This document shows positions 24,898 to 30,508 of a stretch of DNA of 43,062 nt, one piece after another (the first letter of the stretch is position 1; every line of letters begins with the position of its first letter). Position numbers and translations under genes: made by a program. The DNA lies in the IMG/VR virus record IMGVR_UViG_2663763326_000007, one strand, 5' to 3'. The notes beneath the pieces were generated by a model that was not told the origin of the DNA, ran no database searches, and saw nothing but the letters and a program-made list of their open reading frames with translations. This DNA is from a virus. Taxonomy: Duplodnaviria > Heunggongvirae > Uroviricota > Caudoviricetes.

Positions 24898-25386
24898 ATG
24901 GCTACCAACCCAAGAGAGCACGCCCGGCGAGTGCTGGACACGTTCTGGTGCGGGCGTGGTTTCCCTGTTGATCCAGCGAAAATTGCTCACGACATGGGAT
25001 TAGATGTTTTTATTACCGATCTTCCTGGGAAAGTTTCTGGCGCACTGATTAAACAAAAAGATCAAGATCCAGCGATCTTTCTAAACAGTGATGACAACAA
25101 AGTTCGTCAACGTTTTTCATGTGGGCATGAGTTGGGGCATTACATCGCCCGGCAAGCATCGCATAGCGATGAATATGAGTACGTTGATTTACGTGGCGAA
25201 ACCGCAAGCGCCGGAACGCATCCTGATGAAATTTTTGCAAACAAGTTCGCAGCAGAACTTCTGATGCCGGTAGATGAGGTCAGAAAACTGCACGCTGACG
25301 GTCAACCAAGTTATATAATGGCGCATTATTTTGGCGTATCTGACGATGCGATGACTTATCGTTTAAAGAACTTGAGGTTGGGGTAA
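24898..25386 (+). CDS. ImmA/IrrE-family zinc metallopeptidase (M78-like), stand-alone peptidase domain
   Basis: HEXXH motif in ..FSCGHELGHYI.. and a downstream Glu in ..NKFAAELLMP..; GGAGGAG ribosome-binding sequence. Confidence 0.7.
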   Translation: MATNPREHARRVLDTFWCGRGFPVDPAKIAHDMGLDVFITDLPGKVSGALIKQKDQDPAIFLNSDDNKVRQRFSCGHELGHYIARQASHSDEYEYVDLRGETASAGTHPDEIFANKFAAELLMPVDEVRKLHADGQPSYIMAHYFGVSDDAMTYRLKNLRLG

Positions 25387-25395
25387 CGCTTTAAA

Positions 25396-26001
25396 ATGCC
25401 ATCGGATGACGATTTTAACAGCCGTTTCAAACAGGAAGTAGCACGCAGACTGAAGGATTCCCTCAACCTACACCGTCAGTTAGCAGAAGAGGTTGAGCCG
25501 GAGGACGATGAAACTCCGGTTCAGTCTCCTGACGAAGCTTCACCTCAGCCAAAGGTTTCGCACGCCCCCAAAAAAACGGCTGTCCGTATTCGCGGAATAG
25601 CCAGAAAAAGAGCTGCCGAAGCTCGCAAAATGGCTGTAGCTGCGTCTAGCAAAAGAATTCCAACTGCTACACCCTCTCAACAAGTCACCCGTACTGAGAG
25701 TAAAATCTTGACCGAGTTCACATCTGTGAAACAGGTGAATTCACTTGATACCGAGCATGAGCGCAAACAACTCAACAACAAAGATTTTGAAGCAGAAATC
25801 GCTCTAAAAAAACGATACGGGAAATGGTTCCTGATTATCCTTGCTTTCCAACTTCTGATAATGAATGGTGTATTTATTGCCGACGGCGCAGGTAAGCTGG
25901 AATTTGAGGATTTAACACTACAGTTGTACATGGGCGGTACTTTGACAGAGGTATTCGGCCTCGTGCTGGTCGTGACAAAATACCTTTTTAAACGCAAGTA
26001 A
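25396..26001 (+). CDS. Membrane protein with charged, low-complexity N-terminal region and two C-terminal transmembrane helices
   Basis: Starts 10 bp after the peptidase stop; hydrophobic segments ..WFLIILAFQLLIMNGVFIA.. and ..GGTLTEVFGLVLVVTKYLF.. Confidence 0.55.
   Translation: MPSDDDFNSRFKQEVARRLKDSLNLHRQLAEEVEPEDDETPVQSPDEASPQPKVSHAPKKTAVRIRGIARKRAAEARKMAVAASSKRIPTATPSQQVTRTESKILTEFTSVKQVNSLDTEHERKQLNNKDFEAEIALKKRYGKWFLIILAFQLLIMNGVFIADGAGKLEFEDLTLQLYMGGTLTEVFGLVLVVTKYLFKRK
25930..26001 (+). repeat. 72-bp direct repeat, copy 1 (3' end of the membrane-protein gene)
   Basis: ATGGGCGGTACTTTGACAGAGGTATTCGG..CGCAAGTAA recurs at 29352..29423 with about 6 mismatches. Confidence 0.85.
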
Positions 26002-26463: not shown

Positions 26464-27162
26464 TTATATTTTTCCATATTTTTTTCCGTCAAATCGAATC
26501 ATGCCAGGATCAAGAAAATTAATTAAATCGATTAACGCGTGCTGTATTCTGATTAGCCTTTCTTTATAAATTCCGATATCTCTTGTCATATTTATCACTT
26601 CATTGTTTAAATCTAAAAAAAATGGCTCATTGATAAAGCAATTTTCCTTTGTGAAACTGCCGTAACCTATGCAATCAAATCCAGTATCTGTTGATATCAG
26701 CATCTTTTCTGCAATAGCTCTCTGCTCTCCTATGAAAAACATAAAATACTGACCAAAGACGTCTGTTTGGATTAATGAGTTAATATTGTTCTGTAATCTA
26801 ATAAACTCCCTCATTTTTTTATTTTTTTCTAGGCTAAGGTATTGAATGTCTATGCGGGCAGCTTCTGTCCATGCAAAAAACTGGGAAAAAAGAAAAACAG
26901 TATTGTTGATAACATAATCTTGTTGGCGCTTATTCCCATTATGATAAAACTCTTCAATGAACCCCAATTCTAATATATTATAAATACGGCTTTGTAAGTC
27001 TGAAGCTGAGCGAATTAACGGTTCAATATAGTACTGATGTTTTCTCCTTACATCCAGTGATTCATTGAGCTTGTTTATTCTATTCTGATTATAAGTAGAT
27101 ATAGCAATAGAGATTATAGCTATTGCACCACTAATAAAGCTTGAAATTAATGCCGTACCCAT
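26464..27162 (-). CDS. Low-GC protein with N-terminal transmembrane helix (232 aa), function unknown
   Basis: ATG at 27160..27162 with AAGGA 7 nt upstream; N-terminal ..LISSFISGAIAIISIAISTY..; Asn/Ile/Lys-rich, far more AT-rich than the flanking phage genes. Confidence 0.5.
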   Translation of the reverse strand: MGTALISSFISGAIAIISIAISTYNQNRINKLNESLDVRRKHQYYIEPLIRSASDLQSRIYNILELGFIEEFYHNGNKRQQDYVINNTVFLFSQFFAWTEAARIDIQYLSLEKNKKMREFIRLQNNINSLIQTDVFGQYFMFFIGEQRAIAEKMLISTDTGFDCIGYGSFTKENCFINEPFFLDLNNEVINMTRDIGIYKERLIRIQHALIDLINFLDPGMIRFDGKKYGKI

Positions 27163-28349
27163 CTAAAAGTCCTTTGATTCTTGCTTGGTTAACAAAATGA
27201 CATAATTTTATTTAATGCCATAACAACTTAACAATATATCATAATATGATTATTATGGTGTAGCTTGTCGCATCTACGCTCCATTACAAACAGATGTAAG
27301 ATATAACCTATATGTTTTAGCCAGCAAATTCGAAAGCATTCAAAGTAGTCTCATCGAACTCTCGAAACCCTATGTCTTCGGGTATAAAATATTTAAATCC
27401 ATTTGCATAATATCGACTCATGTTTATTATATTCTCCCCATTCACCATTAAGATTTGACATTATTTTCAACAATCGGTTATTGCAAGATTGAAATATATT
27501 TTTACTTGACACAATATTCCATGTAGCCCAGCGATTCGACTTACCCCCAACTATACGGACAATCTAAATTAAATCGATGATTTTTTGATACATTCTCCTC
27601 TCTCCATTACTTTATGTTTTTGTTCCCCAAAAATACCTTGCTCTCTAAAAAATAATTGTTCTTTAAGTTCAAAATCGAGATCTACATGAGCGTTAGATAC
27701 AAAGCTAATATGTTGAAATGTCTTTCCCCCCCCATAACGGCATTGTTATCTAAACTATGTTACACAAATATAATATTACCCTTTCAACGTAATCCAAGAA
27801 TAAGATTAATGCCATTATATATATCATAAATATGATATTTTGTATATTTTTATCATTTAGCCTTGATTGTACTAGGTGTACTCTCAACGAAGTAGGGAAA
27901 GTCTGTTCCTCGCTCACAGCTGCCCTTCAGTAAGCGAAAAAATGCCTACTCGGTGCCATATACAGCCATTGTTATTAACAGCAGGGAATAATTCAAAACT
28001 GAAATTAAATATCTACCTTTTACAGTAGAAATAGTTCCTCCAGGACACTATCCATTGCCGGGCACAATCACTCGGGGTATAACGATATAAAATATGTTCA
28101 TGATAGTGCAGGTTCGTATATTAAGTTCAGCAGCGAAAACATGCCTTACAGGTTTCCGGTTTTGGGAGCGTCGTTACAGGATCCTGCGCATACCGTTCCC
28201 ATCTGTTGAATTAAAGGTTTCACAGCCTTTGCCGATATCACCTTTTACCTTACCTGTGATGCGTTCAGTGCTCAGCGTTGTTTACTGTAGCTCTCGGGAC
28301 TGATTACAGACCGCGTCTTAAAAACCAATCCTTACTCTAAAGGGAATTC

Positions 28350-29273
28350 ATGAGATTAAAATACTCAGTACTCTTACTCGCCATTGCCCTTACAGGCTGT
28401 GATAACAAAAAAGATGAGATCGGTTGTTCTTCGGAAATAACCCAGTCAGCTCTCATGGATTTATTAAAAAAATCTGCTTATGAAGGACTCTCTGAACAGG
28501 TCGATAAATACCCTGATGTCACTAATCAGACCAAACGAAGCACACTGGACAAGATCAAACTAGCCATCTCTGAGATCTCCACAACATCAAGTGACACGGG
28601 CAGCACAATGAAAACTTGTGAAGGGACCGTGACGATGACTCTATCTGCGAACGAGTACGTCCAGCTTTCAGATGCTTACAGAAAGAATTTTAATCGTAAT
28701 CTCGATAAGCAAATGGAAAGCCTGTTTTTGGAGAACAACGCAAACGCCTTTTCAAAACGTATCACCTACACCGTGCAGGCGACCGACGATCAGAAAAACG
28801 TTTTTGTAAAAACCTCTACTGATAATCCGATATCAGTGGGCGCCGCTTTACTGACATCGCTTTCCATTATCACCCCGATCGTTGAGCAGCAGAAAATCCA
28901 GCAGGCTAAGGATGCCCAACAGAGTCAAATTGAAGCGGAACAACAGGTGCAACTCAGGGCGCAAGAACAGGCTAAGTATGAGGCGGAGAAGCAAATAGAG
29001 AGACAGGCACAACTTCAGCCGCAAAAAGCTGACAACCTTGATCAGTCCCGAATGGCATTTGCGAATGCCGACTCTGATTTGAGTACCGTCTGGAGCAAGT
29101 TAACCCCGGCGAAGAAAAAAGATTTGCTGCCTTCTCAGCGTCAGTGGATCAAAACTAAGGATGCTATGTGCGGTAAAGTTTCAATGCAGGGAACAGATGC
29201 TGAAGTCAAGAAAATGGTCGACTGCCAGACGCAAATGACCCTTTCAAGAATCGCTTTCCTCAGAAACCAATAA
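28350..29273 (+). CDS. Lipoprotein with C-terminal DUF1311 (LprI-like) domain
   Basis: Signal peptide with LTGC lipobox; Gln-rich coiled linker; C-terminus ..LSTVWSKL..QRQWIKTKDAMCG..MVDCQTQMTLSRIAFL.. fits the remembered DUF1311 Cys/Trp pattern. Confidence 0.55.
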   Translation: MRLKYSVLLLAIALTGCDNKKDEIGCSSEITQSALMDLLKKSAYEGLSEQVDKYPDVTNQTKRSTLDKIKLAISEISTTSSDTGSTMKTCEGTVTMTLSANEYVQLSDAYRKNFNRNLDKQMESLFLENNANAFSKRITYTVQATDDQKNVFVKTSTDNPISVGAALLTSLSIITPIVEQQKIQQAKDAQQSQIEAEQQVQLRAQEQAKYEAEKQIERQAQLQPQKADNLDQSRMAFANADSDLSTVWSKLTPAKKKDLLPSQRQWIKTKDAMCGKVSMQGTDAEVKKMVDCQTQMTLSRIAFLRNQ

Positions 29274-29351
29274 CTGAAGTCTCCTTCAAGCTGGCGCCAG
29301 GTGTTAACCTGGTGCCAGCTTAGTCATCAAGTGCATATGTAACTGTTTTAT

Positions 29352-29423
29352 ATGGGCGGTACTTTGACAGAGGTATTCGGTCTCGTGCTGGTCGTGGTCA
29401 AATACCTTTTTAAGCGCAAATAG
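29352..29423 (+). repeat. 72-bp direct repeat, copy 2 (orphan gene-end remnant)
   Basis: Encodes MGGTLTEVFGLVLVVVKYLFKRK then a stop, with no upstream gene body; right boundary of the 3.35 kb insert. Confidence 0.85.
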
Positions 29424-29447: not shown

Positions 29448-30266
29448 TCAAAATGCTGAATTAGCAACGGATATAGCCGACTTTTTCCCCATTACCATCA
29501 ATTTATCCAGTGTCATACTTCGCAGATTGTCGCTGTGGATCACCAGATACCCTGCCCGCTCAGCGATCTCTTTGAAAGCGTCAAAGGTCATCAGATGTTC
29601 GCCTTTGGCAACATGGCGCATCCCGGTCACTTTTCCATTTTTGATAGTGGTGATAAAAGAAAAATCTGGAATGGTTGGGTGATTTTCATCGAGTAGCAGG
29701 CAGTGGATGTATTCAATCGCCTCTAACATTTGCGTCTGTGACAGTTGTTCTATGTGAGAGACGGCGAAGCGTTGATGAATCATGGTGTAGGCATCGGGAT
29801 ACATCATGCCTTTCTTGCCGACCAGTATATTAACGGCATCACGCAAGGGAGTACGGTCATCGGTAGTTGTACTCCGCCTCTCTGGACGCTGGCTAAAATA
29901 ACAATCTTCCAGCTTTTCGAAAACTTCCCAGGCCTGTTCTGTTTCCAGCATTTTGGCATGGCGAGCTGCGCCGCGTTCTGTCCAGAGAATGAGGGATCGG
30001 GTATGTTTAGCAACTGACTGACTATCTGTCAGTCTGTTTTTGAAGTCGCGTAATTCATTACCTTCCAGCTTAAAAAAATGCTTTCCTACGACAAATCTGG
30101 CGATGTTGCGCTTGAAGTTTTGCTGGATACCATTTACTTCCGTGCCATACAAACTGGCAAGCAATTCAGTAGTGATGACGGGAAGTTGGTTATGATGTAG
30201 CGGAGAAAGGGATTCCGCAGATATTTGGACTGTCATCGCAGTGGCCTCACTTAGTGTTTTTTTCAT
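29448..30266 (-). CDS. Phage antirepressor / regulatory protein (Ant, ORF6N/Rha-like N-terminal domain)
   Basis: N-terminal ..PVITTELLASLYGTEVNGIQQNFKRNIARFVVGKHFFKLEGNELRDFKN.. resembles the antirepressor N-domain; start set at ATG 30264..30266. Confidence 0.55.
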   Translation of the reverse strand: MKKTLSEATAMTVQISAESLSPLHHNQLPVITTELLASLYGTEVNGIQQNFKRNIARFVVGKHFFKLEGNELRDFKNRLTDSQSVAKHTRSLILWTERGAARHAKMLETEQAWEVFEKLEDCYFSQRPERRSTTTDDRTPLRDAVNILVGKKGMMYPDAYTMIHQRFAVSHIEQLSQTQMLEAIEYIHCLLLDENHPTIPDFSFITTIKNGKVTGMRHVAKGEHLMTFDAFKEIAERAGYLVIHSDNLRSMTLDKLMVMGKKSAISVANSAF

Positions 30267-30508
30267 CACCACCAGCGACGCCAATCATCTGGTGGTGAGC
30301 TGTGCAGGGTTGGCGTAACCGGCTAAGTGAACCCGGCGCTTCCACAGAAGCCCCCACACAGCCCACCATAATGCGAATGTGGCCGTGCCTAACACATAAA
30401 AAAACCGCTAACGCGGCTATGCGTCACTTAGATATCCGGGACGCCAATCCCGGCAACCGATTTTGCGGCTGCGCGGAAACTATAGCCCCGGACTTTTTCT
30501 AAGTCAAT

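Follow-up and report, generated by a model that had tools for sequence, protein, structure and literature searches.

Identification of the gene

The DNA analysed here, referred to as the window, is a stretch of 43,062 nucleotides of a tailed virus (Caudoviricetes; IMG/VR record IMGVR_UViG_2663763326_000007), and it corresponds to a lambdoid-type prophage. The gene under study was found exactly where the original prediction, made from the letters alone, had placed it, and encodes a lipoprotein with a C-terminal DUF1311/LprI domain.

28350..29273, + strand: open reading frame (ORF) of 307 aa with an ATG start, equal to RefSeq WP_001237642.1 and matching phrog_5094

The gene is already known and annotated. 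The RefSeq annotation pipeline (PGAP) names its product 'lysozyme inhibitor LprI family protein', a family name that overstates what is known. The 1.5-kb region around the ORF is 100% identical to many complete Escherichia coli chromosomes, and the gene occurs in about 440 of the 5,426 complete E. coli genomes; several of these carriers bear the label O25b:H4-ST131. No match to the protein was obtained when 50,697 deposited phage genomes were searched by tblastn. None of the PHROG defence or exclusion families was matched, phrog_5094 itself being annotated as 'unknown function'; comparison with the PADLOC defence models gave 0 matched families, and the NCBIfam scan of the protein gave nothing relevant. 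What is new in the present analysis is a correction of the functional label, a family defined by an N-terminal domain for which no model exists, a mobile cassette of 1.2 kb that carries the gene, and spacers against it in clustered regularly interspaced short palindromic repeat (CRISPR) arrays.

In some E. coli carriers the gene is interrupted. The insertion sequence (IS) IS1 lies within the matched stretch in one locus (H1), and IS1 or ISEc52 was found inside or adjoining the gene in H1-H3. A shorter form of 259 aa, annotated as hypothetical protein, was also detected (P0071; 84% coverage, 166 member sequences). The interrupted and 259-aa forms indicate that the gene is dispensable in at least some lineages.

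Architecture of the protein

The product is the precursor of a three-part lipoprotein, in which an alpha/beta N-terminal domain (N-domain) is connected through a helix of about 60 residues to a three-helix DUF1311/LprI domain (C-domain).

28350..28400, + strand: lipoprotein signal peptide with the lipobox LTG-C (Cys17) and Asp18 at position +2, as read from the sequence
28401..28829, + strand: N-domain, residues 18-160, alpha/beta, with an AlphaFold predicted local distance difference test score (pLDDT) >90 over most of the domain
28827..29012, + strand: single long helix, residues 160-221, its second half rich in Gln, Glu, Lys and Ala (AlphaFold model and alignment)
29022..29261, + strand: DUF1311/LprI domain, residues 225-304, a three-helix bundle with invariant W248, W266, C274 and C292

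The protein starts with MRLKYSVLLLAIALTG followed by C, a lipoprotein signal peptide that fits the lipobox [LVI][ASTVI][GAS]C as a pattern match. This is in agreement with the signal peptide proposed in the original prediction, the L-T-G-C lipobox being placed at Cys17. The mature N-terminus is C-D-N. Asp at +2 is retained in the E. coli, Citrobacter, Enterobacter, Yersinia and Klebsiella copies and in most of those from Pantoea; the others have Asn or Gly. In E. coli, Asp at the position after the lipidated Cys results in inner-membrane retention through avoidance of the Lol pathway. The mature protein is predicted to be lipid-anchored in the periplasm and, because of Asp at +2, is probably retained at the inner membrane in E. 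coli.

The AlphaFold model displayed three clear regions and a mean pLDDT of 83.7. The DUF1311 domain of the original prediction was verified by the Pfam search: PF07007 (LprI, formerly DUF1311) matched residues 225-304 with a score of 30.8 bits (gathering cut-off 22, E 4.1e-7), spanning profile positions 10-106 of 106. The predicted Trp/Cys pattern was likewise recovered, with W248, W266, C274 and C292 invariant among 22 aligned homologues. The helical-bundle fold of the modelled C-domain matches the solved DUF1311 structure 3GI7 (Foldseek), with which its QRAW...DC...C...R pattern also aligns. C26 and C90, in the N-terminal half, are invariant among the same homologues. The four invariant Cys fall into two intradomain pairs, one in the N-domain and one in the DUF1311 domain, an arrangement that fits an oxidising compartment. 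The Gln-rich coiled linker that had been described between the signal peptide and the C-domain appears in the model and in the alignment as a Gln-rich helical linker, the length of which differs between orthologues, with insertions of up to ~30 residues.

The lysozyme inhibitor annotation

The original prediction had linked the DUF1311 family to lysozyme inhibition, as does the RefSeq name. When the protein was scanned against Pfam at E<=1, no MliC/PliC (PF09864), Ivy (PF08816), PliG or other inhibitor domain was detected; the scan returned LprI and two sub-threshold chance matches (FliP and DUF7516). The namesake of PF07007, LprI of Mycobacterium tuberculosis (Rv1541c), is also a lipoprotein with a PF07007 domain. 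According to the passages on LprI in the paper describing ScwA (PMC7933661), it combines PF07007 with a separate MliC domain (PF09864) that is sufficient for lysozyme resistance, whereas the window protein has no MliC, carries PF07007 at its C-terminus and possesses a different N-domain. It is stated in the same paper that there is no experimental evidence of lysozyme inhibition for PF07007 itself, and that ScwA of Salmonella Typhimurium (SL1344_0490), the only enterobacterial LprI-domain protein tested, gave no lysozyme protection, since deletion of scwA left the sensitivity to lysozyme/EDTA unchanged (PMC7933661).

The 'lysozyme inhibitor' label is doubtful and poorly founded for this protein, because it has no inhibitor domain, the effect of LprI is attributed in those passages to MliC, and ScwA was negative. 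The proposed link to lysozyme inhibition was not supported by these data. The same label has been propagated to thousands of proteins that have no MliC domain.

These results bear directly on a first alternative, namely that the protein inhibits animal or host c-type lysozyme in the manner of MliC, PliC and Ivy and protects a lysogen with a damaged outer membrane. The Pfam and RefSeq family name 'lysozyme inhibitor LprI' speaks for it, the known membrane-bound inhibitors are likewise periplasmic lipoproteins (PMC7933661), and an Ivy-domain protein (PF08816) is encoded in one Enterobacter prophage that bears the cassette. Nevertheless, given that neither MliC/PliC, Ivy nor PliG was detected at the threshold used, and given the LprI and ScwA data cited above, this function is considered highly unlikely. 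The Ivy-domain gene of the Enterobacter prophage (L009, 5178-5591) is situated near Q/terminase, indicating that true lysozyme-inhibitor morons do occur in these phages.

Comparison with other LprI-domain proteins

In its architecture the protein resembles ScwA, which is also an enterobacterial, horizontally acquired envelope protein (275 vs 307 aa; PMC7933661). Both have a C-terminal PF07007 domain, four conserved Cys at similar spacing (two N-terminal and two in LprI) and no MliC. The likeness is one of architecture; a profile search of a named protein database yielded the close family only. ScwA is located in the periplasm and is a substrate of DsbA. It differs in having a Sec signal peptide, in being soluble and in being encoded on the chromosome, while the window protein is a phage-borne lipoprotein. 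The amount of the lytic transglycosylase MltD is under positive control by ScwA, prolonged overproduction of ScwA lyses cells, and its phenotypes extend to virulence (PMC7933661).

Pseudomonas putida PP0307 (the protein of PDB 3GI7) and YecT of E. coli K-12 are small single-domain secreted proteins of ~100-160 aa that have neither the lipid anchor nor the N-domain and long helix of the window protein. For YecT, a DUF1311 protein activated by BglJ-RcsB, no function is known (PMC3950696). Other LprI-domain proteins are predicted immunity proteins of type VI secretion systems (T6SS), in a Pantoea hcp island and in S. Dublin (SED_RS06230). These, as well as TsiV3 of Vibrio cholerae, measure ~90-150 aa and are encoded next to an effector, unlike the window gene, which was never found adjoining an effector gene in the contexts examined. 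No sequence similarity was found between TsiV3 and the window protein.

The N-terminal domain family

No match was found for residues 18-160 in Pfam, in NCBIfam or among the PDB sequences. Searching the PDB either with the single protein or with a profile of 61 members did not reveal an N-domain homologue, and only 3GI7 was weakly recovered, for the C-domain. With Foldseek the N-domain gave weak matches to NTF2-like, VirB8-like and PBP2a-N-terminal structures (E 0.1-1).

When the N-domain profile was run against 1.84 billion representative proteins, 222 clusters were obtained at E<=0.001, 66 of them at E<=1e-10. Nearly all members are of ~250-400 aa and match at residues ~20-185. A lipobox was present in 76 of the 82 distinct sequences examined, and the residue at +2 in these 76 was Asp (29) or Gly (25) in 54 cases. 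T78, C90 and D146 do not vary across a set of 61 diverse members, and C26, D82, S85, Q143, P144, T145 and D147 are conserved in at least 90%. The consensus signature of the domain can be written as RT-x-K-x-DPNSTK-x-FC ... NAN-x-F ... Y-x-VQPTDDGK. The N-domain of the window protein shows the motifs S-T-T-S-x-D-x-x-S-x-x-K-x-C and Q-A/P-T-D-D.

In a Pfam scan of the 61 members none had any family over the N-domain. The C-terminal partners were diverse: LprI in 28 members, bacterial SH3 in 4, TPR in 2 and a type II secretion system pseudopilin in 1. Bacterial SH3 and TPR modules are usually regarded as cell-wall- or protein-binding. The occurrence of different C-terminal modules on a conserved N-domain suggests an order of parts that looks like a conserved membrane-proximal base, a variable helical spacer and an exchangeable binding head.

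Within the family (P0112-P0259 of alignment A3), some members carry the canonical full-length LprI motif FDC.KA.T..E..IC…. Weaker matches, below 60% identity, were also found on plasmids of Sphingobium, Novosphingobium and Polaromonas. A paralogous subfamily of 356 aa (P0120, 36% identity) occurs in a Citrobacter braakii/Yersinia enterocolitica clade (L036-L039), where its locus is an integrase-bounded island adjoining a cluster of TerD/TerY/VWA, PP2C phosphatase and Ser/Thr kinase genes.

A 1.2-kb mobile cassette

The segment shared with other genera runs from ~28119-28121 to ~29320-29322, and consists of 230 bp before the ATG, the ORF and 48 bp after it, with a hairpin as the last element. 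It is a self-contained accessory cassette of 1.2 kb and a putative moron, composed of a leader, one ORF and a terminal hairpin.

28119..28349, + strand: conserved non-coding leader, taken as the regulatory region and co-transferred with the ORF
28297..28323, + strand: sigma-E-like motif GGACTG-N16-TAAAA, ~27 nt upstream of the ATG, given as a lead
28337..28344, + strand: Shine-Dalgarno region TAAAGGGAA, invariant in all aligned leaders, including that of Pantoea
29289..29320, + strand: 14-bp perfect hairpin at the 3' end of the cassette, with no U-tract after it

The leader is 83-87% identical to the copies in Citrobacter, Yersinia, Pseudescherichia and Leclercia, and its conservation exceeds that of synonymous sites. 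The GGACTG and AAA blocks are conserved across 10 leaders. The pattern GGACTG-N16-TAAAA/TCAAA, chosen after the sequence had been seen, has one match in the window against 0.01 expected, and resembles the sigma-E consensus. No promoter was found when the leader was scanned for the sigma-70 consensus. The hairpin has a folding energy of -32.8 kcal/mol (z = -7.65 against shuffles), and homology with other genomes stops at ~29322. As to the marks of a moron, the position between modules and the antisense orientation are present, the hairpin lacks a U-tract and the leader lacks a sigma-70 consensus.

Two other interpretations of the leader were discarded. Indels of 7 nt in the Yersinia leader and of 1 nt in that of Pseudescherichia would break any reading frame and argue against a coding role, and Rfam gave no match to a known RNA family.

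Elsewhere the cassette occurs with nearly the same ends and 83-90% DNA identity. Chromosomal copies were found in Citrobacter, Yersinia rohdei and Pseudescherichia; that of Citrobacter is located between an iron-uptake operon and a major facilitator superfamily (MFS) transporter gene and was seen on hundreds of contigs. The Leclercia copy is within an island with integrase, methylase and relaxase genes. Lambdoid prophages of the Enterobacter cloacae complex and of isolate BS0013 have the cassette at the equivalent module position, and a related prophage of Escherichia whittamii carries it as well. In Klebsiella it resides on replicons of ~110 kb with their own DnaE, primase, helicase, tail fibre and giant tail protein, gene products which indicate that these replicons are phage-plasmids. 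Nothing beyond the cassette is common to these loci.

In Klebsiella pneumoniae plasmid P3 (NZ_AP024574.1, 110,870 bp; L031, L032) the cassette is 86% identical and has the same ends. The Klebsiella replicons are classed as IncFIB 'non-mobilizable' and encode a DnaB-like helicase, PhoH and a tail protein of >4,000 aa; they also carry genes for AbiH and for a YafO toxin.

Stand-alone chromosomal genes outside prophages were detected in Citrobacter, Pantoea, Yersinia and Morganella, showing that the function is not intrinsically phage-specific. Altogether, close relatives were found in 9 of 185,579 species-representative genomes. When the prophage copy of E. coli is compared with the chromosomal copy of Yersinia, synonymous divergence (dS) is ~0.2, a value far below that expected for vertically inherited genes of these genera. 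The ratio of nonsynonymous to synonymous divergence (dN/dS) was 0.1-0.3 against seven orthologues, in both folded domains. The low dS, the low dN/dS and the scattered loci together identify an enterobacterial gene that moves horizontally and is kept under purifying selection. Temperate elements have captured it repeatedly; it was not invented by a phage.

About 12 genomic contexts were examined for neighbouring genes, comprising those of E. coli, Citrobacter, Morganella, Enterobacter, Pantoea, Yersinia, Leclercia, Pseudescherichia, Klebsiella and Kluyvera and of the P0112 and P0120 clades. Two metagenome loci are short contigs and uninformative in this respect.

These data are the ones relevant to a second alternative, in which the protein would be a housekeeping or stress envelope lipoprotein, for example a scaffold or chaperone, and the prophage copy a passenger acquired by illegitimate recombination. 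Purifying selection is as strong in the phage-borne copies as in the chromosomal ones, conserved partner genes were not found, and the copies interrupted by IS1 (H1) or shortened to 259 aa point to a dispensable gene, all of which would agree with such a role. A possible sigma-E-type promoter would also suit an envelope-stress gene, and the DUF1311 protein YecT, of no known function, is under BglJ-RcsB activation (PMC3950696). However, repeated independent capture by unrelated temperate elements and an island, each time with leader and hairpin, is hard to explain if the carrier gains no benefit, and so patchy a distribution among species representatives is not what a core envelope factor would show. 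On balance this explanation is rather unlikely, although it retains appreciable weight.

CRISPR spacers against the gene

Two sites within the gene are matched by E. coli CRISPR spacers.

28350..28381: protospacer A, the first 32 nt from the ATG, a perfect match to a 32-nt type I-E spacer
28823..28854: protospacer B, a perfect match to a 32-nt type I-E spacer

Spacer A was found in ~120 other E. coli genomes, in the array adjoining iap/cas2e (L018, 599-630), and spacer B in ~15 other E. coli genomes, in the array adjoining queE (L019, 601-632). Each protospacer has 'cat' after it on the + strand, corresponding to an ATG protospacer-adjacent motif on the opposite strand. Per spacer, at most one genome had two matching places (counts uncorrected for clade structure), so that genomes with both the gene and a spacer against it are almost absent. 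This pattern could stem from clade structure, for example if the carrier lineage had no type I-E arrays.

Prophage context

In strain SK1144 the prophage is integrated beside tRNA-Leu/Cys/Gly and pgsA, and positions 8003-40446 of the window are collinear with it at 99.98% identity. The cassette is inserted between the replication genes and the antiterminator Q/late-regulation module, on the strand opposite to the flanking phage genes, in accordance with the earlier view of the gene as prophage cargo. Accessory genes are commonly carried by lambdoid phages between the replication genes and Q.

24898-26001, + strand: ImmA/IrrE (Peptidase_M78) gene followed by a 201-aa ORF, beside the cassette
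26464..27162, - strand: 232-aa gene in AT-rich DNA (32% GC), flanking the cassette on one side
29448..30284, - strand: ORF6N/antirepressor-like gene, flanking the cassette on the other side
25920-26000 and 29342-29422, + strand: 81-nt direct repeat (89% identity), bracketing a 3.4-kb segment that includes the cassette
40447-41885: IS3-family insertion of 1.44 kb, absent from the SK1144 prophage

The genes beside the cassette may constitute a small defence or accessory hotspot. The 232-aa protein gave a weak PADLOC match to 'RTasTM' of DRT systems (E 1.7e-5), and the 201-aa ORF (25396..26001) has a hydrophobic C-terminal segment and no Pfam match. No homology was found between this ORF and the gene downstream of the cassette in the Enterobacter prophages.

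The segment bracketed by the 81-nt repeats holds the 232-aa gene, an AT-rich spacer of 956 bp and the cassette. The second repeat copy is a 3' fragment (ending in LFYMGGTLTEVFGLVLVVVKYLFKRK and a stop codon) of a paralogue of the 201-aa ORF, and the gene order in the E. whittamii prophage (L022) is rearranged exactly at the repeat joints; the repeat pair looks like the scar of a module exchange. The 956-bp spacer (27163-28118) contains no annotated feature and short ORFs only, at 32-39% GC. It is at least 99% identical in essentially all E. coli genomes with this prophage and was found nowhere else in the collection; in some strains IS elements are inserted near it (H2, H3).

The IS3-family insertion encodes orfA (helix-turn-helix domains, 40492..41013) and orfB (rve integrase core, 41010..41861), and it interrupts a DUF4224 gene just upstream of the integrase gene (42016..43062). 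From its position the DUF4224 gene may be the excisionase, in which case prophage excision could be impaired.

The endolysins of the host prophages are of the TIGR02594, GH19 or T4-lysozyme type. Three different types make a role in the phage's own lysis unlikely, and a link to the phage's own endolysin was accordingly rejected.

A third alternative, dedicated superinfection exclusion, is best considered in this context; a block to superinfecting phage had also been raised in the original prediction. The protein would sit in the periplasm and prevent the entry of phage DNA, either by inhibiting a tail lysin or by masking a component of the inner membrane used for entry. Lipoproteins are frequent among the known exclusion proteins of temperate phages, and T4 Sp (spackle) protects against a second phage by inhibiting the tail lysozyme. 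The gene is antisense in orientation and a putative moron in at least three kinds of temperate element (E. coli/E. whittamii prophages, Enterobacter/BS0013 lambdoid prophages and the Klebsiella phage-plasmid), and it shares its accessory stretch with an ImmA/IrrE peptidase gene and a gene weakly matching a defence model. The likeness to Sp and to the prophage exclusion lipoproteins Cor and Llp is one of concept, the protection of the host from a second phage, and the PHROG and PADLOC searches revealed no sequence or profile similarity to any of the three. The stand-alone genes in Citrobacter, Pantoea, Yersinia and Morganella, the lack of a PADLOC match, of an assigned function for phrog_5094 and of any match in the 50,697 phage records, and the differing endolysin types, which show no tie to one lysis system, all argue against exclusion as a dedicated role, which is therefore regarded as improbable.

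Proposed role

By analogy, it is tentatively proposed that the window gene encodes a periplasmic protein that binds or regulates lysozyme-fold peptidoglycan glycosidases, an interpretation to which we give somewhat less than an even chance. The lipid anchor would hold the mature protein in the periplasm with the N-domain close to the membrane, and the helix would extend some 6-9 nm towards the peptidoglycan, with the DUF1311 domain at its far end. There, the DUF1311 domain would bind a lysozyme-fold glycosidase, either neutralising or regulating the enzyme. The target could be a lytic transglycosylase or a muramidase, whether the cell's own, delivered by the T6SS of a rival or delivered by an incoming phage tail, and the outcome would be a stabilised cell wall of the lysogen. 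Such an action would be distinct from the inhibition of animal c-type lysozyme by proteins of the MliC/PliC type. In relatives DUF1311 is replaced by SH3 or TPR, in keeping with an interchangeable binding head carried by a conserved base.

Several observations weigh against this proposal. The proposal does not account for the conserved N-domain, which is probably the functional core. In the contexts listed above the gene is monocistronic with unrelated neighbours, and neither a T6SS effector gene nor a peptidoglycan hydrolase gene adjoins it. Conservation is uniform and purifying, unlike the signature of an inhibitor engaged in an arms race, and the gene is interrupted or truncated in some E. 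coli carriers. The exception among the contexts is Morganella, where the gene follows alpha2-macroglobulin and PBP1C genes.

The Morganella homologue (46% identity; L006-L008, 1-9002) is found 300 bp downstream of the YfhM-like alpha2-macroglobulin/PBP1C genes and near rpoD/dnaG. This pair was rejected as a conserved partner, as the adjacency occurs in Morganella alone and in none of the other clades. The Y. rohdei copy is also close to rpoD/dnaG.

Within the proposed binding of peptidoglycan glycosidases, a role as T6SS 'orphan immunity' is possible. A bolder version, which is speculative and has a low probability, is that of a portable cell-wall guard: the protein would be the founding phage-borne member of a family of periplasmic lipoproteins with a conserved N-domain, a rigid stalk formed by the single helix and an exchangeable binding head, and, anchored at the inner membrane, it would reach the peptidoglycan and capture muramidases or lytic transglycosylases delivered by T6SS or phage tails. 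If true, this would explain both the repeated capture by prophages and phage-plasmids and the E. coli CRISPR spacers against the gene.

The analysis points to a conserved lipoprotein N-domain, without profile model or structure, that is paired with several C-terminal modules. If periplasmic muramidases are neutralised, this prophage, which is common among E. coli isolates including several labelled O25b:H4-ST131, would supply a lysogenic-conversion factor that could affect gut competition or resistance to phage therapy.

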